From positions 11,064 through 75,063 of the forward strand of contig JAKSKR010000003.1 in the NCBI GenBank assembly GCA_024401645.1: DNA of 64,000 nucleotides, written 5' to 3'. Source of the stretch: Paludibacteraceae bacterium. Its GTDB lineage: Bacteria; Bacteroidota; Bacteroidia; Bacteroidales; Paludibacteraceae. The number at the start of each line of letters is the position of its first letter. Within the stretch, counting starts at the first letter, position 1. The notes under the pieces were generated by a model. It made no database searches. It was not told the origin of the DNA and was given only the letters and a program-made list of their open reading frames with translations. The translations under genes were made by a program, and so were the position numbers. Shown piece by piece: positions 10,006 to 64,000 of the stretch.

Positions 10006-10728
10006 ATGAGTTTTAATGATAATGACATGCCACAATTTGGTGGTTCTGCTGGAAACCCGATTGATTACACTCTCGGATTGTCTGCTTTTTTCACAAAAGT
10101 TTATGGTTGGATGGCCTTTGCTTTGGTCCTTTCTGGATTGGCTGCATGGTTAACTGGTCATAACGAAGTTATTGCAAAAGCCATTTTTACAGGCTATACA
10201 CCAATGATTTTGTTCGGTGCTGAATTGGCTTTGGTTTTCGCTATTGGCGCTGGCATGAGCCGATGGTCTGCTTCTGTCGTAACAACACTTTTCGTCATTT
10301 ATTCAGTTGTGAATGGTTTGACCTTGGGTGTTATATTTATTGTGTATGAACTGGGCTCTATTGTTAGTACGTTTGCCGTTACTGCACTCACTTTTGGTGC
10401 TATGAGCCTTTATGGCTATACAACAAAGAAAGATCTTACTGGAATTGGTAAGATGTTGTTCTTTGCACTTATTGGTCTAGTTATAGCATCAATTGTTAAC
10501 TTGTTCTTGCAGAACTCAATGTTCGAACTCGTTGTTAGTGCTATTGGCGTTGTCGTGTTTATTGGCTTAACGGCTTACGATACCCAGAAACTGAAAGCAA
10601 TTGCTTATACTGCAGAAGACCAAGAGTCAATGACAAAGTTGGCTGTTTACGGTGCACTCGATTTGTACCTCGACTTCATCAACTTGTTCTTGTACTTGTT
10701 GCGATTCATGGGTAACCGCAGAAACTAA
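10006..10728 (+). CDS. Bax inhibitor-1/YccA family membrane protein
   Basis: About 7 TM segments and a C-terminal ...DFINLFLYLLRFMGNRRN typical of BI-1. I place the start at ATG 10006; the track ORF begins at an upstream TTG. Confidence 0.85.
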   Translation: MSFNDNDMPQFGGSAGNPIDYTLGLSAFFTKVYGWMAFALVLSGLAAWLTGHNEVIAKAIFTGYTPMILFGAELALVFAIGAGMSRWSASVVTTLFVIYSVVNGLTLGVIFIVYELGSIVSTFAVTALTFGAMSLYGYTTKKDLTGIGKMLFFALIGLVIASIVNLFLQNSMFELVVSAIGVVVFIGLTAYDTQKLKAIAYTAEDQESMTKLAVYGALDLYLDFINLFLYLLRFMGNRRN

Positions 10729-10758
10729 ATCGCATTTATTTAAGATACTCGGCTAACA

Positions 10759-11808
10759 TTGGATCTCGAAAGGTTAAGAAAATACTCCGTCTTAAATAGT
10801 TTCTTGCTATCGCCCGATTTCTCGGAAGGTAGTATTAGAGAATACCTAGGGGATGATACCAAATTCAAGGTTTTGAATTCGGTAGGGGATGCTTTTTCTT
10901 TAGCTTTGCAGTTCTGTAATGTGGCTGAAGGCGATTTTGTTCTTACGCAGGCTATCGGGGCTAAAATGGCCCTTGATTCGATCATAAAATTGGGTGCTTC
11001 GCCTATTCTTATCGATAGTGAAGCTGCTAACTGGAATATATCTGCGATGATGATTGAGGTGGCAATCAATCAGTGTGTGCTGACAAAGGGCTGCCGACCT
11101 AAAGCCATCGTTGTAAAACATTATATGGGCGTGCCTGCCTTTATGGATGAGGTGGTGGCTGTTGCAAAGCGACACCATATCCCCCTTATAGAAGACTGTA
11201 TAGGTTCAATGGGCGCATCTTTTAATGGTAAGGCCTGCGGTACTTTCGGACAATATGCCATCTTCTCCATTCGAGGCTCGAAAATGAACAAGTCAGGTCT
11301 TGGACTGTTGGTTCACTCTGTTCCCCGATTCGACGATCTTCTTCAAAAACTTGTTGAACGTGATGGCCTCGGATACAGAGGAGATTTAGATGGAACCTTC
11401 TCTCTCTCGGAGTTTCGTCGAGAATTGAGTCTTAGAAAGCGTGTCTTCGACATTTATACGTCTGCATTTAGCGATATAGAAGGTGTAAATTTCTATAAAT
11501 GCCTGGTGCCTAACGTTCAGCCAAATCATGCTTACTCACCATTGGTGGTGCAAGAAAGGCTATTCCCGCACAAACGTGACGAGGTTGTTCAGGCAATAGC
11601 CGATGCTGGCTTTGAAGATTGTTGCGCCTTCCCGCCGTCTCTACATACCGTAGATCCATATAAAAATTTTCCCTTCTATGGCTGTATGGTAGGGTCGGAT
11701 ATTTGCACCAATGGCTTGATTCTTCCATCTAATTCGTCGTTATCAATTTCTGATATTGATAAGATTGTGGGAGCCGTCTTTAAGACATTGGGTATAAAAC
11801 GAAAATGA
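10759..11808 (+). CDS. DegT/DnrJ/EryC1/StrS-like aminotransferase homologue (divergent, non-ATG start)
   Basis: LIEDCIGSMGASFNGKACGTFGQYAIFSIRGSKMNKSGLGLLV resembles the DegT block iEDaAqalGa...G.....fSF...K....GeGG. The only in-frame start upstream of that block is TTG 10759; the first ATG is 70 codons in. Confidence 0.55.
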   Translation: MDLERLRKYSVLNSFLLSPDFSEGSIREYLGDDTKFKVLNSVGDAFSLALQFCNVAEGDFVLTQAIGAKMALDSIIKLGASPILIDSEAANWNISAMMIEVAINQCVLTKGCRPKAIVVKHYMGVPAFMDEVVAVAKRHHIPLIEDCIGSMGASFNGKACGTFGQYAIFSIRGSKMNKSGLGLLVHSVPRFDDLLQKLVERDGLGYRGDLDGTFSLSEFRRELSLRKRVFDIYTSAFSDIEGVNFYKCLVPNVQPNHAYSPLVVQERLFPHKRDEVVQAIADAGFEDCCAFPPSLHTVDPYKNFPFYGCMVGSDICTNGLILPSNSSLSISDIDKIVGAVFKTLGIKRK

Positions 11809-11914
11809 ACAGATTGTGTTCCCAGCCCTTCTAAATGGCGGACTGACGTCGATTTTATTTGGGCTCTTGTGTTTTTAATATTAACTTTGTAGGTAAATTC
11901 CATTTCAAGTGATA

Positions 11915-12718
11915 ATGAAAAAATTATTGTTCTTATTTTCGGTATGTGCATTGCTCTCTTCTTGTAATGCTCGTAAAAACATTGTGTATTTGCAAGATAA
12001 CAAGATAGAACAAATACAGGCTATTGCTAATGCTAATAAGATTAAGGTTCAGCCAGGTGATCAGTTGCAAATTATAGTTTCATGTAAAGATCCTGAATTG
12101 GCTGCCATCTTGAATATGCCAATTGTGTCTTTTCATTCGCAGACGTCTACAGTCAACACATCTAATAGTGTTGTCACTTATGTGGTGAATGACGATGGAA
12201 CAATCGATTTCCCTATCCTTGGCTCAATTCCAGTCGAAGGTCTTACTCGTGAAGAAGTAAGAACAACCATTGCTAATAAGATTAAGGAACTTGAGCTGAT
12301 TCAAGATTTCGTGGTTACGGTCAATTTCTCAAATTTGAAGATTTATGTATTAGGCGAAGTTAGTGCTCCTGGTACATATACTATCACTGATAACAATGTT
12401 AACGTACTTCAGGCGATTGCAATGGCAAAAGATTTGACTATACATGGTCGTCGTGACGAGGTTTACGTTGTTCGTGAACAGGAAAACAATAGAGTTACTT
12501 ATCGTTTAGATTTACGTTCTGATAGTATTTTCCAATCGCCTGCTTTCTATTTGAAGCAGAACGATGTCGTTTATGTCGCTCCAAGCAAGGTACGTGCTAA
12601 CCAGAGTACAGTGGGTGGTAATGCAGTGCAGAATCCATCGTTTTGGTTGAGCGTTACTTCTTGTTTGACTTCAGTGGCTACATTCTCGTTAGCAATGTAT
12701 AGATATCGCCACGATTAA
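11915..12718 (+). CDS. Polysaccharide export outer-membrane protein (Wza/BexD family, Poly_export + SLBB)
   Basis: Lipoprotein signal (LLSSC), ...IKVQPGDQLQIIVS...DGTIDFPILGSIPVEGLT.EE...I and the SLBB-like IYVLGEVSAPGTYTI. Confidence 0.85.
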   Translation: MKKLLFLFSVCALLSSCNARKNIVYLQDNKIEQIQAIANANKIKVQPGDQLQIIVSCKDPELAAILNMPIVSFHSQTSTVNTSNSVVTYVVNDDGTIDFPILGSIPVEGLTREEVRTTIANKIKELELIQDFVVTVNFSNLKIYVLGEVSAPGTYTITDNNVNVLQAIAMAKDLTIHGRRDEVYVVREQENNRVTYRLDLRSDSIFQSPAFYLKQNDVVYVAPSKVRANQSTVGGNAVQNPSFWLSVTSCLTSVATFSLAMYRYRHD

Positions 12719-12747
12719 TCATTCATATAACACTTTCAATATTAAAT

Positions 12748-15204
12748 ATGTTCGAGGAGAACAACAAATACATGTCTGCCATCCAGAAAGACGAAGAGGA
12801 AGATGGCATTAACTGGAGAAGTATAATTGATATTATCATTAATAACAAGTTATGGATAATTTTATCCATGGCTTGTTTTTTGGTGTTGGCATTACTTTAC
12901 TTAAGGCATACCCCCAAGATATACTCTAGTTCTACTACCTTCATTGTAAAGGACGATAGAAAAGGACGAGGAACTGGTGGCATTTCTTCTGAACTTTCTG
13001 ATTTGGGTATCATGACGACAAAGTCGAGTGTCGATGACGAAATTGAGGCGTTTAAGTCTCCATATCTTATGTATATGGTGGTTAAGCAACTTGGTTTAGA
13101 TATAACTTATACCGACAAGCAATTTCTTAAAAAGGTAGAGTTGTATAATAAAACCCCATTAAAGGCTCATTTCTCTAGTTTAAAGGATGAAGACGTTTTT
13201 AAGTTTAATGTCAATATGAAGGGTGCTGATGCCTTTTTATTGTCAGATTTTGAGGTAGTTGATAAATTACTTGGAAAGTTAGTTGTATGTGATACTATCA
13301 TCGAAGCTCGTCCTAATCAAGTAGTCAATACACCAGTAGGGCCGGTTAGTATTAATTACACGTCTGAATTTAAACCGAAACAGCTTGGAGACGACATTTT
13401 GATTACCAAGTCCGATTCTTATAAGATGGCAAAATTGTTGTCTTCAAATTTGATGGCCGATTTGGTTTCAAAAAAGGCCACTGTAATTTCTATGGTATAC
13501 CGAGATTTGTCGACAGATAAAGCTACTGATGTCCTGAATAATCTGCTTGAAATATATACCCGCGAGGCTATAGATGATAAAAGACAAACAGCTGAAATTA
13601 CATCTAAGTTTATTGATGGTCGTCTTATGATCATTGAACAGGAACTTGGAGGCATTGATAATGATATTGAACGTTATAAAAGTCATGAACTTCTAACAAA
13701 TGTTCAAGTTGCGGGAAACTCTTATATGGGAGAGTCTTCTGCTTATTCTTCACGTACACTCGATGCAATGAACCAATTAAATATTGCAAAGTTTGTGAAA
13801 GAATGCTTGGCATCTTCGGTTTCTTCTAAACCGACCATGTTACCTGCAAATGCTGGCTTGACTGATCCTAGTGTTAGTAGCCTCATAACCGAATATAATT
13901 CCAATGTTTTGAAGTACGAACGATTGTTGGTTAACAGTGGTGAGAAGAATCCATTAGTCATCGATTTGAAGGTTCAAATCGATGCAATGCGTGTTTCTAT
14001 TGAAAACTCTCTTGATAATCTTATAAAAACAACAACTATGACTGTTGAAACTTTGAAGGCTAAAGAATCTCAAATTCAACAGAAAATTGCCACAAATCCA
14101 AAACAGGAAAAATATTTGTTGTCCATTGGCCGTCAACAGAAAATTAAGGAAAGCCTTTATCTTTACTTATTACAGAAGCGTGAAGAAAATGAGCTTTCTG
14201 GTAATCTAATGGTCAGCAACATTCGTATGTTGACTCCACCTCGTGCTGAAGATAAGCCTGTAGGCCCCCAAAAGATGCGCATTCTAGCTATATGTTTATT
14301 CTTGGGTTTCTTGCTACCGGTTATTTTTATATTGATTCGCGATTTAATGGATGGTACAGTTCGTGGCAAGAAAGACCTAGCTGTTCTTTCTATTCCATAC
14401 TTGGGAGATATACCTCTTTGTGGAAAAATTGAAGATAAGTCCAAACACCCTCTTCCTGTACGTATAGTTGTTGAAGATAAGAAACGCGATGGCTCTAACG
14501 AAGCGTTTCGTGTGCTTCGTTCTAACTTAAACTTTATGACTGCTAACTTGAGTGGGCGTGTCATGATGTTTACTTCTTATTTCCCTAACTCTGGTAAAAC
14601 GTTTGTATCAGCTAACTTGGCACTAGGTATTGCGTTAACGGGTAAGAAGGTTGTGCTGATTGATGCCGATATGCGTAAGGCTGAATTGAGTAAACAGTTG
14701 GCAAATAAACGTCAAGGTTTATCAACATATCTTAATGGGCAATCTAACGATTTAAAGTCGTTGATTGTTAAGTCTTCATTAAACGACAATCTTGATATCT
14801 TACCTTGTGGTGCAATGCCTCCTAATCCTTCCGAGCTTTTACTTACTGATAAGCTCGAAATTATGATTGAGGAACTTAAGAAGATGTACGATTATATTTT
14901 CATCGATTGTACTCCACTAAATATTGTTGCCGATGCATCTATCGTGGGTAAGAAGGCTGACTTGGTGATTTTCGTCATTCGCCAGGGTAAGTTTATTCGC
15001 CAAGCATTGCCTGAACTTGAATCGTTGTATAAGAGCAATACATTCAAGAGTATGGCTACCATACTTAATGGAACTTACGATAGTAAATCACATAGTTATG
15101 GTGGATATGGCTCGTATGGTCGCTATGGTTCTTATGGTGGTTACGGCTCATACGGAGGCTATGGTTCTTATGGTTATGGCTCTTCATCTGCTGATGAAGA
15201 ATAA
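12748..15204 (+). CDS. Capsule/EPS chain-length determinant with tyrosine autokinase (Wzc/BY-kinase family)
   Basis: 818 aa. Wzz-like N-terminus with a TM segment, long coiled coil, second TM segment, Walker A-like SYFPNSGKTFVSANLA, VVLIDADMRK, and a C-terminal Tyr cluster. Confidence 0.85.
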   Translation: MFEENNKYMSAIQKDEEEDGINWRSIIDIIINNKLWIILSMACFLVLALLYLRHTPKIYSSSTTFIVKDDRKGRGTGGISSELSDLGIMTTKSSVDDEIEAFKSPYLMYMVVKQLGLDITYTDKQFLKKVELYNKTPLKAHFSSLKDEDVFKFNVNMKGADAFLLSDFEVVDKLLGKLVVCDTIIEARPNQVVNTPVGPVSINYTSEFKPKQLGDDILITKSDSYKMAKLLSSNLMADLVSKKATVISMVYRDLSTDKATDVLNNLLEIYTREAIDDKRQTAEITSKFIDGRLMIIEQELGGIDNDIERYKSHELLTNVQVAGNSYMGESSAYSSRTLDAMNQLNIAKFVKECLASSVSSKPTMLPANAGLTDPSVSSLITEYNSNVLKYERLLVNSGEKNPLVIDLKVQIDAMRVSIENSLDNLIKTTTMTVETLKAKESQIQQKIATNPKQEKYLLSIGRQQKIKESLYLYLLQKREENELSGNLMVSNIRMLTPPRAEDKPVGPQKMRILAICLFLGFLLPVIFILIRDLMDGTVRGKKDLAVLSIPYLGDIPLCGKIEDKSKHPLPVRIVVEDKKRDGSNEAFRVLRSNLNFMTANLSGRVMMFTSYFPNSGKTFVSANLALGIALTGKKVVLIDADMRKAELSKQLANKRQGLSTYLNGQSNDLKSLIVKSSLNDNLDILPCGAMPPNPSELLLTDKLEIMIEELKKMYDYIFIDCTPLNIVADASIVGKKADLVIFVIRQGKFIRQALPELESLYKSNTFKSMATILNGTYDSKSHSYGGYGSYGRYGSYGGYGSYGGYGSYGYGSSSADEE
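15097..15180 (+). repeat. Short tandem coding repeat (TATGG[YN]-rich) encoding (G-Y-G-S-Y)n at the Wzc C-terminus
   Basis: The translation reads YGGYGSYGRYGSYGGYGSYGGYGSYGYG. The DNA shows reiterated tatggt/tacggc units. Confidence 0.8.
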
Positions 15205-52898: not shown

Positions 52899-53711
52899 TT
52901 ACAATGCTCTTGCCAACTCGCGGAAGAGGGTTGACAAGTTCTTCTGTGCTTTCAACGAGTTGCGTTGTACGTCTTCGTGGTTGTTTTCAACAACACCCGC
53001 TTCTGCCAAGATGTTTGAAACGACCGAAACACCGAAACACTTAATGCCACACCAGTGTGCAACAATAATTTCGGGCACGGTACTCATACCGCAGGTGTCA
53101 CCACCAATCAAGCGGAAGTACTTGTACTCGGCTACGGTTTCAAATGTAGGTCCTTGTGTTCCCACGTACACACCCTTCTGGTAAGGAATGTCTAGCTTGT
53201 GCGCAATTTCTTCGGCCTTTGCAACGAGGTCGCGGTTATATGCGTTGCTCATGTCTGGGAAACGAACGCCCAATTCATCGATGTTTGGACCGTGAAGTGG
53301 ATGTTCAGGGAACAGGTTGATGTGGTCGGTAATAATCATAATATCACCTGCCTTGAAGTTCTCGTTTAAGCCTCCTGCTGCGTTTGACACAAACAAGTAC
53401 TTAATGCCGAATGCTCTCATCACCTTCTCGGGGAAAGTAATGTCGTCCATGCTGTAACCTTCGTAGAAGTGAAGGCGACCCTGCATGGCCATTACATCCT
53501 TTCCGGCAAGTTTTCCAAATACTAATTGGCCTTTGTGGCCGGCTACTGTGCTGGTCTTGAAATTTGGTATCTCGTTATATGGAATGACGTCTTTTACCTC
53601 TATTTCATCGGCTAGTGCGCCTAATCCAGATCCCAATATGATAGCAATTTCAGGACGCTCCTTGGTCCTATTCTTCAGATATTCGCAAGTACTGTTTATT
53701 TTTGTTAACAT
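52899..53711 (-). CDS. punA: Purine nucleoside phosphorylase (PNP family 2, inosine/guanosine type)
   Basis: ...PEIAIILGSGLGALAD...GHKGQLVFG...MQGRLHFYEGY...VGTQGPTFETVAEYKYFRLIGGDTCGMSTVPE. Confidence 0.92.
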   Translation of the reverse strand: MLTKINSTCEYLKNRTKERPEIAIILGSGLGALADEIEVKDVIPYNEIPNFKTSTVAGHKGQLVFGKLAGKDVMAMQGRLHFYEGYSMDDITFPEKVMRAFGIKYLFVSNAAGGLNENFKAGDIMIITDHINLFPEHPLHGPNIDELGVRFPDMSNAYNRDLVAKAEEIAHKLDIPYQKGVYVGTQGPTFETVAEYKYFRLIGGDTCGMSTVPEIIVAHWCGIKCFGVSVVSNILAEAGVVENNHEDVQRNSLKAQKNLSTLFRELARAL

Positions 53712-54867: not shown

Positions 54868-55045
54868 AGAAGCTGTTTAAATTTTTTTATTGGCGAATTT
54901 TATGAGAGATTTTTTAGGATAGTTTGAATGGTTTAGAAAGGAGCAATGGAAACTCCATTGTGACTGAAAAACCATTCAAAATAGACAAAAAAGATCCATA
55001 AAATGCCCAATAAGAATTCTTTCGTAAAATTTTTAAATAGCTTCT
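54868..55045. repeat. Long imperfect palindromic intergenic element (arms about 67 and 77 nt around a small central hairpin)
   Basis: Arm 54868-54934 versus the reverse complement of 54969-55045. Perfect blocks: tttgaatggttt/aaaccattcaaa (12 bp), tttttt/aaaaaa, attttatg/cataaaat, attgg/ccaat, agaagct.tttaaa/tttaaa.agcttct. Central hairpin caatgga-aac-tccattg at 54944-54960. Confidence 0.8.
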
Positions 55046-55052
55046 AAAAGTT
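55030..55052 (+). repeat. Left copy of the 23-bp direct repeat bracketing the kinase/receiver module
   Basis: TTTTTAAATAGCTTCTAAAAGTT is 20/23 identical to 57908-57930. It contains the stop codon (cta, 55044-55046) of the receiver gene. Confidence 0.8.
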
Positions 55053-56465
55053 CAGTTTGTTATACTTTTTTGCGAATAACGGATAAGCTCCCTTGGTGTC
55101 TTTTATGTTGTCTACAATGTTGAAAATTTCAAGCCGGTCGCCTTCTTGTAGTGGTGTGTGGGGTATAATCAGGCACTTGCCGCAGTGCCAGTTGCCACGT
55201 CCATCGCGTTCCACGCACATCATTTGGTGCTCAAAGGCATCCTTGTTCAGCTCGCTGCTGCCAATTGGCTCCATCTGTTCTTCCTCTCTCGGTATGATGT
55301 CGTAGTAGTTCTTGCCTCCGCCAACCGGTATGTTTTCTTTCGGGTGACTAGCTGGTTTGTTCTTCTTTTCACTTCTTTCACGAATGAAGTTTTTTCCGTT
55401 CGATTCGCTCTTTTTCACCTTTTGGCACCATTTCATGTTCTTGTCTCTGTCGGGGTGCTTGCCGATGTATTTGCCATACCAGATTATGGCATCGCATAGT
55501 TCAAGGGCGAAACTGAAAAGTTGACGGCTACCTCCAACAGTTGCAAAATAGTCGACAACGTTTTTCGACTCGTCTACCGTTTCGTCTGCCGTGTGGGTGC
55601 ATGCGTTGGCGGTGTTTAGTATCTGTTGCAGGTTGTTGCTTAAGATTTCTGGGAATAGGTGGTCGCCTAGGGCATACGATCCGTATCTGACACCAAGGTG
55701 CTTGGTGTCTTCCCCCGATAGGTAACGTAGCGATTCTTGTAGGTTTATTTTACCATTTATGGCGCATTCATCGGGTAAAAGTCCGGTTTGGTTGCAGGCT
55801 CTGAATAGGTATTCAATAACTTGCCTTAATTGGGTAAAACTAGACAGGCTGAACTCGGTGGTAACGGTTTCGGGGAAGTGCATGGCTTTCAGCACTGGGG
55901 TGAGTAGGTTGGCAACTTCCTTGTCGAGCATGTTCTGGCGTTCTTCAATCGTTTTGAAGACGTCTGGGTATAGTGCACGAATCTTGGTAGTGTAACTCGA
56001 ATCGTTGGAATGGCGAATATTGGAGAAAAGTAAGTCCAAATCGGTGGTTCCATCGGTGTTTCGCTTGTCTTTGAAGTAGAGTAGTTGTCCCCAGTCTTCG
56101 TTGTGCTTTTTGCGGTCGTCGTTGTTCACCATTTGCAAGACCAGGTCAAACTGTTCCATGGTGCCGGCACTTAATACGTACCATGGCAGCTCGGCATGTT
56201 TTTCGCCGAATATCTTTGCCAGGCGTGGCATAACGTAGGCCAGGAAGGTCTTGTCTTCCACGCTGTCGGCGCTAAACTCGCAGTTGGCATCGAGTATGAT
56301 GGCAGAAAACTCGTTGAAATGGTCTTTTAACTCACTTTCTGCAGCCTCCCAGTTCGGAAAGCATGGTAGGTCTATGTTATATTGCTCTGCCATCATTTGC
56401 GTACTTTCTACGATGGAATGGTCATTGTCGACCCAAAGCACTTTCATTATTTCGTTTGTGTCCAT
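55044..56465 (-). CDS. Receiver (REC)-domain protein with uncharacterised helical domain, Lys-rich linker and C-terminal beta-rich (OB/cold-shock-like?) module
   Basis: 473 aa. REC-like KVLWVDNDH (D13/D15), AIILDANC (D59) and PWYVLSAG (S99). The helical region QLRQVIEYLFRA...LQQILNTANACTHTAD...FSFALELCDAIIWY is reminiscent of DUF4145. The C-terminus reads GNWHCGKCLIIPHTPLQEGDRLEIFNIVDN..KGAYPLFAKKY. Confidence 0.7.
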   Translation of the reverse strand: MDTNEIMKVLWVDNDHSIVESTQMMAEQYNIDLPCFPNWEAAESELKDHFNEFSAIILDANCEFSADSVEDKTFLAYVMPRLAKIFGEKHAELPWYVLSAGTMEQFDLVLQMVNNDDRKKHNEDWGQLLYFKDKRNTDGTTDLDLLFSNIRHSNDSSYTTKIRALYPDVFKTIEERQNMLDKEVANLLTPVLKAMHFPETVTTEFSLSSFTQLRQVIEYLFRACNQTGLLPDECAINGKINLQESLRYLSGEDTKHLGVRYGSYALGDHLFPEILSNNLQQILNTANACTHTADETVDESKNVVDYFATVGGSRQLFSFALELCDAIIWYGKYIGKHPDRDKNMKWCQKVKKSESNGKNFIRERSEKKNKPASHPKENIPVGGGKNYYDIIPREEEQMEPIGSSELNKDAFEHQMMCVERDGRGNWHCGKCLIIPHTPLQEGDRLEIFNIVDNIKDTKGAYPLFAKKYNKLNF

Positions 56466-56478
56466 GGTTCTTTTGTTT

Positions 56479-57825
56479 TTAGGTGTAAGAAATGCAGTTT
56501 TGGAAGGTTAGCACGTAGGCAAAGGGGTATTCCGAGGCATCGTTGCAGTCAATGGTGGCTGTTCCGCCAAATCGGCTCATGAGGTTCCTTATTTGGAAGG
56601 CGCCCAGGCCGTTGTGTCCATCGGTGCCTACGGCTGTCGATCCGCCATACATGAATACTTTTTCTTCCGACATGCCTTTTTGCAACGGTTTGCCGTTGTT
56701 GGCAATGGTCAGGGTGCAGGTGCTGCCTATGCTGTTGTATTCTATGCGTATAATGTTGTTCTTGTCTTCAATGCCCGAAAATCCGTGCGAGCAGGCGTTG
56801 CTCACAATGTTGTCGAGTATTTGGTTGAGTGCTTGCTTCGGAAAGTCGAGGTAAACGAGTGGATCGCCTTTGTGAAGCACGCTTTCGCCTTTCATTTTAA
56901 AGTCATCGGTTGCATATTTGCCCGTTTCATCGAACTTATAGGTAAACATTGGACTTTGGTGACTGTTGATGTATTCGCCGATGAATGGGGCAAGAGCAAT
57001 CTTTTCTTTCTCCATTCCATCGCCAATGGTGAAGGTGTTTATCTGGTTCGAGATGATGTTCAGCGTTTCGCCTATGCGGTTGTAGATTTCCCCTACGGCC
57101 ACAGGACGAATCTTGCCGGTTGTTGTGTCATCTTTCAGCACACCGTTGTTTTCTTGCCTTGCTTTCTGCAATGTGTTCCACCAATTGTTCAGGTTGAATA
57201 TGGTTTGTCCAACGGCATGCTTTTTCAGGTGAATGTCCTTTTGGTAATTCTCGAAATCGGCCTGTTTCTGGCTCATCAGCTCTTGCAGAAGGTCTAGCAT
57301 GTCGTTCTTCACTACCATGTCTTGCATTTCAAGGCTTGGTAAGTCTATGCGTAACGAAAGTAAGTCGTTTTCGTCGATTAAATCGCTTATTTTATGTGGC
57401 TGCTCTGTCTCTTTTATGTTGCGCTTCAACTGCTGGCTCATATCGTCCGACACCAGTTCTCGCAACAGGTAGTCTTCGTTGACGACATTGTGGTTTTTTA
57501 TGTGAAAGGCAAAAAACGGTATGCGGTCTACGTAAACGCCTTCTTCCAAGCCCTTCATGCTGCTAATGCGTGCCACCTTGAAGTGGTCGCCGCTAACCAC
57601 TGCCATAAGGCATGGCGATTTAATCACGGTTTTAACGCGGTAGTTGGCAGGACCAATATTCTTTGCTGTAATGTACGACAGCATGTACTGACTCGTAAAG
57701 TCAACCAGCGACATGCATGGCTTGTTGTCTACGGGTACGGCCAGGCTTAATCGTTCAAGCGCAATTAGGTCGATTAAATCGCCCAATTTGTAGGCTTGTG
57801 TTTCTAATTCATGCTCTCTTTCCAT
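56479..57825 (-). CDS. Histidine kinase with N-terminal type I R-M HsdS-like target-recognition domain
   Basis: 448 aa. TRD-like aa ~10-175 (YKLGDLIDLI; LMAVVSGDHFKVARISS; NEDYLLRELVSDDMSQQLKR; LRIDLPSLEMQDMVV). H-box-like DIHLKKHAVGQTIFNL (H199/H203). N box LNQILDNIVSNACSHG. G boxes IANNGKPL and DGHNGLGAFQIRNLM. Confidence 0.75.
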   Translation of the reverse strand: MEREHELETQAYKLGDLIDLIALERLSLAVPVDNKPCMSLVDFTSQYMLSYITAKNIGPANYRVKTVIKSPCLMAVVSGDHFKVARISSMKGLEEGVYVDRIPFFAFHIKNHNVVNEDYLLRELVSDDMSQQLKRNIKETEQPHKISDLIDENDLLSLRIDLPSLEMQDMVVKNDMLDLLQELMSQKQADFENYQKDIHLKKHAVGQTIFNLNNWWNTLQKARQENNGVLKDDTTTGKIRPVAVGEIYNRIGETLNIISNQINTFTIGDGMEKEKIALAPFIGEYINSHQSPMFTYKFDETGKYATDDFKMKGESVLHKGDPLVYLDFPKQALNQILDNIVSNACSHGFSGIEDKNNIIRIEYNSIGSTCTLTIANNGKPLQKGMSEEKVFMYGGSTAVGTDGHNGLGAFQIRNLMSRFGGTATIDCNDASEYPFAYVLTFQNCISYT

Positions 57826-57907: not shown

Positions 57908-57930
57908 TTTTTTAACAGCTTCTAAATGTT
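57908..57930 (+). repeat. Right copy of the 23-bp direct repeat bracketing the kinase/receiver module
   Basis: TTTTTTAACAGCTTCTAAATGTT contains the stop codon (cta, 57922-57924) of the MetH activation-domain gene. Confidence 0.8.
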
Positions 57931-58857
57931 GTGCATGAGCCATTTCCCCAACTCGTTTCTGTCGCTTCCACTTCGTTTCGCATAGTCGTCGAGTTGGTCG
58001 TTTCCCACTTTACCTACCATAAAGTAGAACGACTTTGGGTGCGAGATGTAGAGTCCGCAAATTGATGCGTTTGGCTGCATGGCTCCGTTCTCGGTGATGT
58101 GCATGTCAATCTCTTCCATCTTTAAAAGTTGGTTCACTCTAAAAATTATGCGTTGGTCGGGTATGGCTGGGTAGCCAATGGCTGGACGTATGCCTTTAAA
58201 AGGTAACTTCATCAGTTCCTTCGGGGTAAAGCTTTCGTCGGGGGCATAGCCCCAGTAGGTGGTGCGTACTTGCTGGTGTAGCCATTCGGCTGTTGCTTCT
58301 GCAAGTCGGTCGGCAACACTCTTAATCAGTATCGAGTTGTAAAGGTCGCCTTCGGTTTTGTAACGCTCGCTCAACTGGTCGGCACCGTCTATGCATAGAG
58401 AAAAAAGACCGATGAAATCGGATTCGGGCGATACGAAATCGGCTAGCGAGATGCACTTGCCTACCAGTTCGCTAGGGTGCTGTTGCCTTAACATGGGCAA
58501 GTAGATATCTTCGCCATCTTCGGGCGTGAGCATAATGCCTTCGTTAGCACTATGGGCAGGACTGAACACGATTCGTGCCCTAATGTGTAGAAGGTTTTCA
58601 TCCTTTGCTCTTTTTAGCATGTTCCTGGCGTCCACAAACAGGTTCATCGCTTCGCGTGCCTTGTCGGTTCCATACTTGCGGTTGGTTACCAAAAAATTCT
58701 GTAAGCATTGCTCACATCCGCAAAAATTATCCAATCCATCGAATCTTCCAGGCAGTCCCCATGCCTTAAAGAAGAATACCCAGTCTATGTAAGGAGCAAC
58801 GGTCGAAATTTCTATGTTTTCAAACGTTTTTGTTCCTTTTAATCGGGGAATATTCAT
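57922..58857 (-). CDS. Standalone methionine synthase (MetH) AdoMet-binding reactivation domain protein
   Basis: 311 aa with ...FKGIRPAIGYPAIPDQ... and ...ASICGLYISHPKSFYFMVGKVGNDQLDDYAKRSG.....L.KWL, which parallel the E. coli MetH C-terminal activation domain. Confidence 0.85.
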   Translation of the reverse strand: MNIPRLKGTKTFENIEISTVAPYIDWVFFFKAWGLPGRFDGLDNFCGCEQCLQNFLVTNRKYGTDKAREAMNLFVDARNMLKRAKDENLLHIRARIVFSPAHSANEGIMLTPEDGEDIYLPMLRQQHPSELVGKCISLADFVSPESDFIGLFSLCIDGADQLSERYKTEGDLYNSILIKSVADRLAEATAEWLHQQVRTTYWGYAPDESFTPKELMKLPFKGIRPAIGYPAIPDQRIIFRVNQLLKMEEIDMHITENGAMQPNASICGLYISHPKSFYFMVGKVGNDQLDDYAKRSGSDRNELGKWLMHNI

Positions 58858-60352: not shown

Positions 60353-63300
60353 ATGCAAAGCAATTATCCTACGCAAGGGGGACTTTACAATCCCGAGTAC
60401 GAGCACGATGCGTGTGGTGTCGGAATGTTGGTAAACATCCACGGCAACAAGAGTCACGAGCTCGTGGATTCAGCATTGAAGGTTCTTGAAAACATGCGCC
60501 ATCGTGGTGCTGAAGGAGCCGACAACAAGACCGGTGACGGTGCCGGCATCATGTTGCAGATTCCTCACGAATTCATTCTTCTTCAAGGTATTCCTGTTCC
60601 TGAAAAGGGAAAGTATGGTACAGGTCTCGTTTTCTTGCCAAAGGATAAGAAGAAGCAGCAAGAAATCCTTAACATCATCATCGAGGAAGTTGAAAAGGAA
60701 GACCTCACGCTTATGCATTTGCGCGACGTCCCTACCAACTCTGAATGCTTGGGTAAGGCTGCTGCATCTGTTGAACCTGACATTAAGCAGATTTTCATTA
60801 CCGGCGTAACTAACGACAAGCTCGATATTTTCGACCGTATCCTTTACGTTATCCGTAAGAAGATTGAAAATCGTGTTAAGGACGAAGATTTCTATATTGT
60901 TTCGCTTTCTAGCAAGAACATCATCTATAAGGGTATGCTTACCTCTATGCAGGTTCGCGAATACTTCCCTGACTTGAGCAATAGCTACTTCACCAGTGGC
61001 TTGGCGTTGGTTCACTCTCGTTTCTCTACCAACACCTTCCCTCGCTGGTCTTTGGCACAGCCTTTCCGTCTCCTTTGCCACAACGGTGAAATTAACACCA
61101 TCCGTGGTAACCGTGCTTGGATGGAGGCACGTGAAAGTGTCCTTTCTTCTGAAGCCCTTGGCGACGTTAAGAAGATTCACCCAATCATTCAGCCTGGCAT
61201 GTCAGACTCTGCGTCTCTCGACAACGCTCTCGAGTTCTTCGTAATGTCTGGTATGAGCTTGCCTCACGCAATGGCCATGTTGGTGCCAGAACCATTCAAC
61301 GAAAAGAACCCTATCAGCGAAGACTTGAAGGCATTCTACGAATACCACTCAATCCTTATGGAACCTTGGGACGGCCCTGCTGCCCTCTTGTTCTCTGATG
61401 GTCGTTTCGCTGGTGGTATGCTCGACCGTAACGGTCTCCGCCCTTCTCGCTACCTCATCACTAACAACGACATGATGTTGGTTGCTTCTGAAGTTGGTAC
61501 CATCGAATTCGAACCTTCTGAAATCAAGCAGAAAGGTCGTTTGCAGCCTGGTAAGTTGTTGCTTATCGATACCGAAGAAGGTAAGATCTATTATAACGGC
61601 GAAATTAAGGACGAACTCTGCAACCAGAAGCCTTATCGCCAGTGGTTGTCTACTAACCGTATCGAACTCGACAAGTTGAAGAGTGGACGTAAGGTTAGCA
61701 ACGACGTTGAAAACTACGACCGCAAGTTGCTCCACTTCGGTTTCACTCAGGAAGACATCAAGCGTACCATCGTTCCTATGGCTTCTACTGGTGCCGAACC
61801 GGTTGCTGCAATGGGTAACGATACTCCTCTTGCTGTTATCTCCGAAAAACCTCAGTTGCTCTTCAACTACTTCCGTCAGCAGTTCGCACAGGTAACCAAC
61901 CCTGCTATCGACTCTATCCGTGAAGAGTTGGTTATGAGCCTTACCGAATATATCGGTGCTGTTGGTATGAACATCCTTTCTCCAAGCTCTGACCACTGTA
62001 AGATGGTTCGCTTGCCACAGCCTGTTCTTAACAACACCCAGCTCGACATTTTGTGTAACATCCGTTACAAGGGCTTCAACACCGTTAAGTTGCCTATCCT
62101 CTTCGAAAAGGCAAAGGGCGAATCTGGCTTGAAGGCTGCTATCGACGAAATCTGCAAGAAGGCAGAAGAAAGTGTCGACAACGGTGTTAACTACATCATC
62201 CTTTCCGACCGCGACATCGACGAGGCTCACGCAGCTATCCCTTCTTTGTTGGCAGTAAGTGCTGTTCACCAGTACCTCATCTCTGTTCAGAAGCGTGTTC
62301 AGACTGCTATCATCATCGAGTCTGGTGAAATCCGCGAGGTTATGCACGCAGCCCTCTTGTTGGGTTATGGTGCTTCTGCTCTCTGTCCTTACATGACTTT
62401 CGCTGTCATCAACGACATGATTAAGAAGGGCGAGATCAAGGAAAACTACGAATCTGCTGAAAAGAAATATATCAAGGCTGTCGATAAGAGCTTGCTCAAG
62501 ATCATGGCTAAGATGGGTATCTCTACTATCCGTTCTTACCGTGGTGCCAAGATTTTCGAAAGCATCGGTCTTAGCGAAGATCTTCTTAGCACTTACTTCG
62601 GTACCAAGCAGACCACTATCGGTGGTATTGGTTTGAAGGAAATTGCTCGCGATGCTATCCGCATGCACGACGAAGCTTTCGCTTCTAAGATTAGCCCAGT
62701 TCTTCCAAGCAGCGGTTTGTTCGCTTACCACAAAGACGGTGAAAAGCACGCTTGGAACCCTGAAACTATCGCTAACTTGCAGTTGGCAACACGCTTGAAC
62801 GACTACGCAAAGTATAAGACTTACGCTAAGTTGGTTAACGAGAAGGAAGATCCTTTGTTCATCCGCGACTTCTTCTCTTTCAAGAAGAATCCAATCGACA
62901 TCAACAAGGTCGAACCGGTTGAGTCTATCGTTAAGCACTTCGTAACTGCTGCAATGTCTTTCGGTGCTATCTCTAAGGAAGCTCATGAGGCACTTGCCTT
63001 GGCAATGAACAAGTTGGGTGCTCGCAGCAATACCGGTGAAGGTGGTGAAGACAACGAACGCTTCACTGGCACTTTCGACGGCATCTCGCTTAACTCAAAG
63101 ACCAAGCAGGTTGCATCTGGCCGTTTCGGTGTAACTACCGAATACTTGGTAAATGCAGAAGAAATTCAGATTAAGGTGGCACAGGGTGCTAAACCTGGTG
63201 AAGGTGGTCAGTTGCCTGGTTTCAAGGTCGACGCTGTCATCGCCAAGACTCGTCACTCTATCAAGGGTATCTCTCTTATCTCACCTCCACCTCATCACGA

Positions 63301-64000
63301 TATCTACTCAATCGAAGACTTGGCTCAGCTCATCTTCGACTTGAAGAACGTCAACCCTAAGGCTGCAATCTCTGTCAAGCTCGTTGCTGAAAGCGGTGTT
63401 GGTACAATTGCTGCCGGTGTGGCAAAGGCAAAAGGCGACCTTGTAATCATCTCTGGTGCAGAAGGTGGTACTGGTGCTTCTCCTGCTTCTTCAATGCGTT
63501 TCGCTGGTATCTCTCCTGAAATTGGTTTGAGCGAAACTCACCAGACTCTCGTCGAGAACAACCTTCGTGGTTACATCCGTGTTCAGGTCGACGGTCAGTT
63601 GAAGACCGGTCGCGACGTAGTCAGCATGGCACTCCTTGGTGCTGAAGAATACGGTTTCGGTACAGCTCCACTTATCGTATTGGGTTGCGTAATGATGCGT
63701 AAGTGTAACACCAACACTTGTCCTGTAGGTGTTGCAACACAAGATCCTAAGCTTCGCGAACGCTTCCGTGGTCACTACGAATATGTAGTTAACTACTTCC
63801 GCTTCGTTGCTGAAGAAGTTCGTGAATACTTGGCTGAAATGGGCTTCACTTCTTTGAAGGAAATCATCGGTCGTACCGACCTCATCGAAATCAAGCCTCG
63901 TAAGGAAGGTTCTAAGGCTGCAACTCTCGACTTCAGTCGTCTTTTGCACCGCGTAGAGAATGGCGCAGACATCTGCTGCACTACTGCTCAGAACCACGAA
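60353..64000 (+). CDS. gltB: Glutamate synthase large subunit (5' 1216 codons; continues beyond window end)
   Basis: My own + strand translation from ATG 60353 reads [31 protein letters not shown]...[19 protein letters not shown] (Ntn amidotransferase Cys) and later ...AMSFGAIS...GEGGE...[16 protein letters not shown]...[15 protein letters not shown]. It is open to position 64000. Confidence 0.95.
   Translation, partial: [1216 protein letters not shown]

Follow-up and report, generated by a model that had tools for sequence, protein, structure and literature searches.

What does a histidine kinase sense when its input end is built like the recognition part of a restriction enzyme? This question is raised by a gene on the minus strand of a 64,000-nucleotide stretch of DNA from a Paludibacteraceae bacterium (GenBank assembly GCA_024401645.1, contig JAKSKR010000003.1, positions 11,064 to 75,063), which is called the window in the following. 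An earlier note, made from the sequence of this stretch, had proposed that the encoded kinase uses as its sensor a single target recognition domain (TRD) of the type found in HsdS, the specificity subunit of type I restriction-modification (R-M) enzymes. We find that the window kinase is a cytoplasmic (soluble) histidine kinase with a single HsdS-type TRD as its input end; with the neighbouring regulator it very probably forms a two-component system, for which an input borrowed from restriction enzymes is unprecedented. For the locus as a whole we lean, with somewhat better than even confidence, towards a composite explanation, in which a TRD-input two-component kinase relays to the regulator encoded next to it and the pair is a reduced derivative of a defence-linked family. 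The kinase gene and its parts are the following.

56479..57825 (-): TRD-histidine kinase gene; open reading frame (ORF) of 448 amino acids (aa), 100% match to P0001
57340..57798 (-): single HsdS-type target recognition domain, residues ~10-162; family profile, hidden Markov model (HMM) of HsdS, Foldseek viral matches, ratio of nonsynonymous to synonymous substitution rates (dN/dS)
57322..57339 (-): TRD-terminal motif P-S-L-E-M-Q, residues 163-168; invariant columns, alignment to HsdS 'PLPPLxEQ'
57031..57333 (-): continuous signalling helix into the dimerisation/His-phosphotransfer (DHp) hairpin (helices 165-225, 244-265); DSSP of the AlphaFold2 (AF2) model, fixed spacing
57217..57219 (-): His203 codon, predicted phospho-acceptor in the H-box K-K-H-A-x-G-Q-T; invariant in 31/31, Foldseek kinases
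56482..57030 (-): catalytic ATP-binding (CA) domain, residues 266-448; HATPase_c, N box NIVSNACSHGF, G1 NNG, G2 HxGxG

The window kinase has no concealed N-terminal domain, because a stop codon lies in frame one codon 5' of the kinase ATG and the gene upstream stops 96 bp away. Residues 10-170 are the translation of 57316-57798 on the minus strand (QAYKLGDLIDLI...LPSLEMQDM). All five protein strings quoted in the earlier note are found in the kinase translation, including DIHLKKHAVGQTIF with His203 at 57217-57219. P0001, which is identical to the window kinase, carries the source name 'ATP-binding protein, Paludibacteraceae'.

The N-terminal target recognition domain

Taken alone, the resemblance of the window protein to HsdS is not above chance. 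Methylase_S (PF01420) is absent at E<=1 in a direct Pfam scan, and Pfam and NCBIfam together return only HATPase_c (Pfam E 7.4e-8, residues 331-428, above the gathering score) and weak kinase models. A BLASTP comparison of residues 1-200 with EcoKI HsdS gives no significant match (E 4.2), and a PADLOC scan gives four weak matches to the type I specificity model Specificity_I (E 0.004-0.015). The missing direct Pfam match and the BLASTP value are what speaks for a chance resemblance, in which residues 10-170 would form an unrelated alpha/beta domain. This alternative is effectively refuted by strong profile evidence in both directions.

In the forward direction, 42 homologues of the window kinase are detectable. 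When 31 homologues were scanned singly, HATPase_c was matched in 31/31, N6_Mtase in 13/31 and Methylase_S in 9/31 (best E 1.4e-4); the Pfam check suggested in the earlier note is thus positive for the homologues and negative for the window protein itself. A TRD-only family profile, built from an alignment of the N-terminal region of 21 sequences, has seven matches at E<=1 in the PDB. Every one of them is an R-M protein with an S-type TRD, six being specificity subunits and one a chain named type I methyltransferase subunit. M. jannaschii 1yf2 is matched at E 1.3e-6, T. tengcongensis 5ybb/3okg at ~8e-6 and EcoKI 2y7c at 0.0075; further matches are S.BsaXI, 7eew and EcoR124. Run against 1.84e9 cluster representatives, this profile retrieves 8162 proteins at E<=1e-3, of which 431 reach E<=1e-10 and 53 reach E<=1e-30, and two-TRD proteins of ~400 aa are matched at E 7e-16 to 5e-14. 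The best 150 of these matches include 15 proteins of 353-470 aa without a kinase or methyltransferase part, most of them with two matching stretches. Ten of the 15 were scanned, and each proved to be a classical HsdS with Methylase_S present twice (E 1e-24 to 1e-41).

In the reverse direction, an HMM built from these ten HsdS proteins scores 36.8 bits against the window kinase (E 1.9e-10, residues 82-195), compared to a maximum of 9.9 bits for the control of 2000 shuffles of the kinase N-terminal 200 residues. Alignment by hhalign of the family profile with a genuine HsdS of a related locus gives E 3.5e-6, and with EcoKI HsdS E 0.0011, with ediviamssgsksvvgksa, fcgvlrpek... and inipipplaeq of the latter in the alignment. 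The block-by-block parallel to HsdS drawn in the earlier note therefore holds in its register, as aligned by hhalign, but not in pairwise significance, as the BLASTP value shows. The TRD ends with D-L-P-S-L-E-M-Q (residues 161-168), of which Pro163 and Gln168 are invariant in the family. This terminal P-x-x-E-x-Q motif aligns to IPLPPLEEQ of 1yf2 and 5ybb and to ipipplaeq of EcoKI. The window kinase, like its kinase-bearing relatives, contains a single TRD-matching stretch, and its remainder consists of DHp and CA.

Structural comparison points in the same direction. The AF2 model of the window kinase has a mean predicted local distance difference test score (pLDDT) of 83.4, and most 10-residue blocks of the TRD lie above 83. 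With the whole model as Foldseek query against the PDB, the top 50 matches are all histidine kinases and are uninformative on the TRD; the best are HK853, WalK, CpxA, DesK and EnvZ-type chains at E about 1e-9. Viral structures are poor in kinases, which makes other matches visible: after the kinases, giant-virus adenine methyltransferases come next, together with proteins named 'Type I restriction modification DNA specificity domain protein' and 'type I restriction modification enzyme, M and S domains'. These matches have E 5.8e-6 to 4.8e-3, probability 0.99-1.0 and 197-316 columns, for the whole model and with aligned residues not displayed, so that for the TRD fold the modelled structure gives indirect support to what the sequence indicates. 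The match of the model to M+S proteins again speaks against a chance resemblance, and so do homologues that carry the TRD directly after an N6-methyltransferase domain, as M-S fusion enzymes do. We regard the assignment of the N-terminal domain (residues ~10-170) as a TRD, as the earlier note had it, as nearly certain.

Kinase core, signalling helix and downstream regulator

The anatomy of the C-terminal part supports a true DHp+CA histidine kinase of orthodox type. His203 in K-K-H-A-x-G-Q-T is invariant in 31/31 aligned relatives. The family alignment has the consensus N-I-V-S-N-A-x-x-H-G-F for the N box, N-N-G for G1 and H-x-G-x-G for G2, and the CA residues N339, N343, N376, G378, H404, G406 and G408 are invariant. 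In the AF2 model, the DHp-like hairpin is followed by an alpha/beta CA domain. The H-box is atypical, as no Pfam HisKA-type model matches the window kinase.

The earlier note had suggested that the helix following the TRD runs straight into the DHp helices and thereby offers a mechanical path. In the AF2 model, DSSP indeed assigns an unbroken helix 165-225, from the end of the TRD through His203. The spacing between Gln168 and His203 is exactly 34 residues in 31/31 aligned relatives and in 86/108 representatives; in three it is 41 (+7, one heptad). Fixed-length helical linkers are typical of the signalling helices of sensor kinases, and the constant spacing therefore supports a mechanical path from TRD to kinase.

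The gene directly downstream encodes the likely partner in a phosphorelay, with the following parts.

55044..56465 (-): cognate response-regulator gene, 473 aa; ORF starting 13 bp after the kinase stop, homologue in every kinase locus
56061..56447 (-): divergent receiver (REC) domain, residues ~7-135; VDNDH acidic pocket, Asp59, Ser99, Lys132, Foldseek
56289..56291 (-): Asp59 codon, predicted phospho-acceptor in I-L-D-A; invariant, aligned to the NtrC REC phospho-Asp position
55431..56042 (-): orphan all-helical output domain, residues ~142-345; AF2, with R214, E218, H291 invariant
55047..55253 (-): small C-terminal beta-barrel, residues ~405-473, with C-x-x-C and YP(L/Y)FA motifs; AF2 confidence, DSSP

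None of the 86 regulator homologues has a Pfam domain. Response_reg is above the Pfam threshold in no member of the regulator family, and 4 of 28 members match it weakly (best E 0.11). In structure, the REC assignment is clearer: Foldseek of the regulator model against the PDB returns the receiver domains of PmrA, PhoP and PhoB (target-normalised TM about 0.7) and PorX at E 5e-6, and there are weak profile matches to the REC of NtrC/PhoP. The residues of a receiver are kept in the family, with the V-D-(D/N)-D pocket, invariant Asp59 and Lys132, and Ser99. The regulator adjoins the kinase in the window and in loci L001, L005-L036 and L038.

An alternative would dispense with the phosphorelay. 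The GHKL module would then be an ATPase or clamp, as in R-M-associated MORC/paraMORC proteins, and no phosphorylation of the downstream protein would take place. R-M-linked GHKL ATPases are known (PMC8011034), and the atypical H-box and the sub-threshold Response_reg matches fit such a role. Against it stand the invariant His on a DHp-like hairpin together with invariant N, G1 and G2 boxes, the closest structural matches, which are orthodox kinases, and a strictly linked partner gene whose product has a REC fold with Asp, Asp, Ser and Lys in place. HATPase_c_3, HEF_HK and Response_reg_2 are all unmatched. We consider this alternative very improbable, and a phosphorelay of kinase and regulator, with predicted transfer from His203 to Asp59, highly likely.

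The output part of the regulator has no detectable relative outside its own family for the helical domain, the linker or the barrel in Pfam, PDB and homologue searches. For the helical domain, a profile search gives 0 PDB matches at E<=10, and a Pfam scan of 28 members gives noise only. Used alone as query, it finds 109 proteins, essentially all of which, complete or fragmentary, belong to the same receiver-plus-helical family and carry no informative Pfam domain. Foldseek of the regulator model matches only the REC domain plus some helices. A disordered lysine-/arginine-rich linker of roughly 50 residues follows (354-404, pLDDT about 30), and then the beta-barrel, which is present in most partners of at least 410 aa and missing from the ~350-aa forms. 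The barrel may bind nucleic acid.

Kinase and regulator lie 5 kb apart in L002/L003 (10436-16739). The kinase there, P0042, is the most divergent (29% identity), and among the small ORFs between it and the downstream regulator are three SprT-like genes in tandem and a NADAR gene on the opposite strand.

Long and short forms and their genomic settings

The window kinase is a minority, reduced form of a larger family, without the methyltransferase domain or the defence neighbours of most relatives. The TRD-kinase architecture described in the earlier note recurs in the database: the best 150 matches of the TRD-only profile comprise 108 proteins with an N6-methyltransferase-like domain, TRD and kinase (median 804 aa), 13 with TRD and kinase, and 12 with methyltransferase and TRD but no kinase. 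The family is not rare, the 53 and 431 matches given above being clusters at 50% identity, and it is concentrated in gut and rumen Bacteroidales. A survey of species-representative genomes, with local HMM screens of the neighbours, yielded 23 loci, mostly from gut and rumen Bacteroidales and a few from metagenome-assembled genomes of Clostridia. The short form accounts for 4 of the 23, all from Paludibacteraceae, Candidatus Physcocola or UBA3297, and these loci consist of kinase and regulator only.

The 19 long-form loci have a fixed layout. The regulator is immediately downstream in 19/19, and a WYL-domain regulator is immediately upstream in 18/19, the exception being a contig end. On the 3' side of the regulator we find hsdM-hsdS-hsdR in eight loci, hsdR directly in one, AIPR in three and GmrSD with RhuM in one. 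The spacing between regulator and defence gene amounts to a few bases or an overlap, and to 189 bp before GmrSD. Metagenome loci show the order HTH, WYL, kinase, regulator and then type I R-M in three independent gene arrangements. Other family loci sit in mobile elements.

The methyltransferase-like domain of the long forms mostly deviates from the canonical sequence in catalytic motif IV. This motif is canonical ([DNS]PP[YFW]) in 6 of the 75 long forms with a closely related kinase core, as NPPF, NPPY or SPPY. In the other 69 it is degenerate, mostly to F/T/I-P-P-I/L/V/F, with FPPI, APPI and TPPF as examples (P0016, P0022, P0129; L013, L021). From these residues we infer that the domain is usually not catalytic, and the pattern suggests a repeated or early loss of catalysis. 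A degenerate motif IV fits a sensing, not a catalytic, role.

The same observations bear on the main rival explanation, a guard or decoy sensor. Here the TRD, in long forms together with the degenerate methyltransferase domain, would imitate the core formed by M and S in type I enzymes and would not read DNA at all; the kinase would be switched by phage anti-restriction DNA mimics such as Ocr and ArdA, or by binding of host HsdM. The degenerate motif IV in 69/75 close long forms favours a decoy, and so does the placement of the cassette directly 5' of type I R-M genes in 8-9 of the 19 genome loci and in the three metagenome arrangements. The kinase TRD moreover represents its own conserved lineage, which is unrelated to the specificity of the adjacent HsdS. 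When eight kinase TRDs were compared with nine HsdS proteins by BLASTP, cognate pairs scored no higher than others, and the TRD as a copy of the adjacent HsdS specificity is thereby ruled out. PrrC, a guard embedded in type I loci, and PARIS, which senses anti-restriction proteins, are precedents for such a function. However, the cassette also precedes AIPR and GmrSD, where there is no type I enzyme to guard, and no R-M genes adjoin the copies in the window and in L005/L006. We regard a guard or decoy function as unlikely, although it is the strongest of the rivals.

Several members of the family deviate from this layout. In L022, a complete HsdR (10581-13649; HSDR_N, ResIII, T1R_D3-like, EcoR124_C) follows right after the regulator with no hsdM or hsdS between, and the contig ends about 270 bp past it; this raises the question of whether the methyltransferase-TRD-kinase substitutes for M and S there. 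In L011 (3330-5901), the methyltransferase-like part (a 461-codon frame) and the TRD-kinase (393 aa) occupy two ORFs that overlap, and in L007 (10115-11385) the regulator is split into three frames. These broken versions could reflect frameshift, assembly error or decay. The proteins P0194, P0206, P0216, P0217, P0219, P0248 and P0270 are 1098-1363 aa long, with several hundred extra residues or two TRD-matching stretches; the extra residues are between or before the methyltransferase and TRD parts.

The window locus itself has housekeeping flanks, with PfkB and Met_synt_B12 upstream and LpxK and PNP downstream. This order, PfkB, Met_synt_B12, kinase, regulator, LpxK, PNP, is kept around orthologues of 72% identity, and a second short-form lineage occupies a different housekeeping site. 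Local HMM and phmmer screens found no hsdM-, hsdS- or hsdR-like ORF within the 64-kb window. Inspection of the region upstream of the kinase revealed no convincing Bacteroidetes-type promoter motif. The short form is under purifying selection and shows no decay: in a pair of orthologues below saturation (dS about 0.3), dN/dS is 0.03 for the TRD (dS 0.35), 0.024 for helix and DHp, and 0 for CA. Between close orthologues, the TRD is the fastest-evolving part, with 53% identity versus 74-78% elsewhere in the protein.

These values bear on a further alternative, that the TRD is a relic which serves as a leftover folding or dimerisation scaffold, with the kinase constitutive or controlled otherwise, for example by ATP level or a partner protein. 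A relic would agree with a window form that lacks the methyltransferase domain, WYL gene and defence cargo of most relatives, and with the TRD as the most divergent part. But the purifying selection on the TRD is strong, its distance to the phospho-acceptor His is invariant, and it is confidently modelled. In kinases, the input domain generally changes faster than the catalytic core, and the lower identity of the TRD is therefore not unusual. A relic thus appears improbable.

Of the neighbouring genes, the stand-alone Met_synt_B12 gene (57922-58857 (-), 311 aa, E 1.3e-87) lies 96 bp upstream of the kinase on the same strand and is syntenic in orthologous loci. Met_synt_B12 is the S-adenosylmethionine-binding reactivation domain of methionine synthase. 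An S-adenosylmethionine-dependent methyltransferase-like domain precedes the TRD in long forms, and a Met_synt_B12 gene precedes the window kinase; this placement is probably a coincidence and the gene a housekeeping one. Two genes downstream of the regulator, a 270-aa PNP_UDP_1 gene of the purine nucleoside phosphorylase (PNP) family (52899-53711 (-)) overlaps lpxK. Detocs effectors are members of the PNP family too, but this gene has no receiver domain, is syntenic and looks like a housekeeping gene. At 60470-63997 (-), ORFs of 236, 545 and 168 aa have odd, low-complexity-like translations. They are probably antisense shadow ORFs, because synteny with L008 predicts a plus-strand glutamate synthase gene there, which runs off the window end.

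For the window pair, we propose the following mechanism. Homologies, domain architecture, gene linkage and purifying selection are documented above, whereas we infer what the TRDs bind, which way control runs and what the regulator puts out. The kinase would dimerise via its DHp helices and so present two TRDs. These would bind a ligand, most likely double-stranded DNA and possibly DNA of a particular sequence or modification state. Binding would alter the register or tilt of the rigid, fixed-length helix and thereby change autophosphorylation of His203. The phosphoryl group would pass to Asp59 of the regulator, whose gene starts 13 bp downstream, and the orphan helical domain and C-terminal beta-barrel of the regulator would execute the response. 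In evolution, the pair would descend from the ~800-aa methyltransferase-TRD-kinase proteins of the WYL-kinase-regulator cassette. The window copy would have shed the methyltransferase domain along with the WYL gene and its defence cargo, and it is retained at a fixed chromosomal site in Paludibacteraceae. The long-form cassette, which starts with a WYL regulator and stands before exchangeable defence genes, may act as a sensing front end; another possibility is an independent immune relay like Detocs.

A number of points weigh against parts of this proposal. The window locus lies among housekeeping genes and carries no defence cargo. A TRD without a methyltransferase partner may bind DNA poorly, and the window protein has no such domain. 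By sequence comparison, the kinase TRD does not match the specificity of the adjacent type I enzyme in long-form loci. It is moderately conserved (mean pairwise identity 30% across the family), not hypervariable, and a common non-sequence-specific or protein ligand could account for this. The conserved helices of HsdS pair as an antiparallel coiled coil with one TRD at either end. In kinase dimers, the two copies of DHp helix 1 run parallel to each other, and the TRDs of a kinase dimer would therefore lie side by side, in a geometry unlike that of HsdS. The output domain of the regulator is without recognisable relatives. Binding of DNA by the TRD and the resulting control of the kinase are predictions from sequence. 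Considering all this, DNA as the TRD ligand is to us a possibility held at slightly below even. That the system is the first two-component system with DNA itself as stimulus, read by a restriction-type TRD, in the form of a portable defence front end of which the window copy is a domesticated version, we put forward tentatively and consider less likely than not.

The methyltransferase-TRD-kinase family is apparently undescribed. The earlier note knew of no described TRD-kinase fusion, and in the open-access full-text literature we likewise found no publication on a TRD-kinase or methyltransferase-TRD-kinase family. There is no dedicated Pfam or NCBIfam model for the kinase family or the regulator. 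Source names of the family proteins are 'ATP-binding protein', 'signal transduction histidine kinase' or 'hypothetical protein', and 'ATP-binding protein' is inadequate as annotation of the window gene. Known stimuli of histidine kinases are small molecules, light, redox state, membrane stress and proteins. An input of restriction origin that reads DNA directly would be a new signalling logic for this class. The kinase would then signal that DNA is present, or which sequence or methylation state it has, or else that there are phage DNA mimics that attack type I enzymes, and the response would run through a regulator with a previously unseen output domain, itself an uncharacterised fold family. 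The full cassette of WYL protein, pseudo-methyltransferase-TRD-kinase and regulator would be a portable front end for type I R-M, AIPR and GmrSD in gut Bacteroidales and some Clostridia. Its fixed slot between a WYL regulator and swappable defence genes would offer a testable link from detection of foreign DNA or anti-restriction to immune output.

Comparison with known systems

The closest known relative of the input domain is HsdS itself (PF01420; 1YF2, 3OKG/5YBB, EcoKI 2Y7C). Its TRD is homologous, ends with the same P-x-x-E-x-Q motif and is followed by a long helix, and many relatives of the window kinase adjoin a genuine hsdM-hsdS-hsdR operon. In contrast to HsdS, which alternates two TRDs with two conserved helical regions, the window kinase has one TRD, and its helix enters the DHp, whereas the HsdS helix pairs with the second conserved region. 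The hsdM and hsdR genes are missing from the 64-kb window, and 8-9 of the 19 long-form relatives have separate hsd genes downstream. With its single TRD and DHp and CA as the remainder, and with no hsdM or hsdR in the window, the window protein is ruled out as a type I specificity subunit.

The long relatives share the order of N6_Mtase followed by TRD with M-S fusions, type IIG enzymes, BREX PglX/BrxX and the giant-virus 'M and S domains' proteins. These enzymes, however, end after the TRD or add nuclease or helical extensions, and have no histidine kinase. Motif IV of the long forms is mostly degenerate, unlike in these enzymes, and the window protein has no methyltransferase domain. The long forms also match the PADLOC model mad2 of MADS, at E values down to 3e-18. 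This match reflects generic N6-methyltransferase similarity, because a neighbouring genuine HsdM matches mad2 better (6e-22). Together with the lack of other mad genes nearby, this rules out membership in MADS, a mad1-8 operon.

Pairs of HEF_HK (PF19191) and Response_reg_2 (PF19192) are R-M-linked (Bellieny-Rabelo et al. 2021, PMC8011034). HEF_HK proteins have an N-terminal paraMORC-type ATPase and occur mainly with type II systems and C5 methylases (PMC8011034). As in the family of the window pair, a soluble kinase-like protein stands beside a divergent receiver protein, enriched near R-M genes, and the regulator is without a known output domain. The two differ at the N-terminus, where HEF_HK has the paraMORC-type ATPase and the window kinase its TRD. 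PF19191, PF19192 and HATPase_c_3 are unmatched in 31 kinases and 28 regulators, which rules out identity with this system.

In Detocs (Rousset et al. 2023, bioRxiv 10.1101/2023.01.24.525353), the kinase DtcA has a TPR sensor, DtcB serves as buffer receiver, and DtcC joins a receiver to a PNP nucleosidase. Detocs likewise combines a cytoplasmic histidine kinase with a receiver protein of non-canonical output in defence contexts, and it sets the precedent for an immune phosphorelay. Where Detocs has three genes, the system described here has two; its sensor is a TRD, a separate buffer receiver is missing, and the output domain is unrelated. The PADLOC scan of the window kinase gave Specificity_I only, from a release for which the inclusion of Detocs models is uncertain. 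Two genes, a TRD input and a regulator with no PNP or other Pfam match rule out membership in Detocs.

CapK is a single-stranded-DNA-activated Ser kinase of the anti-sigma type with HTH-STAS-GHKL architecture, and CapS is a STAS-wHTH repressor. CapK/CapS differs by its STAS domains and Ser phosphorylation, with no His-Asp relay and no TRD, and compared to the WYL regulators CapW/BrxR, the window copy is without a WYL gene and without a downstream defence operon. The systems also have features in common. CapK is a DNA-activated GHKL kinase, the long-form cassette starts with a WYL protein as in CapW/BrxR, and in all these cases a small sensor module stands directly upstream of interchangeable defence operons (PMC13373217; PMC9122601).

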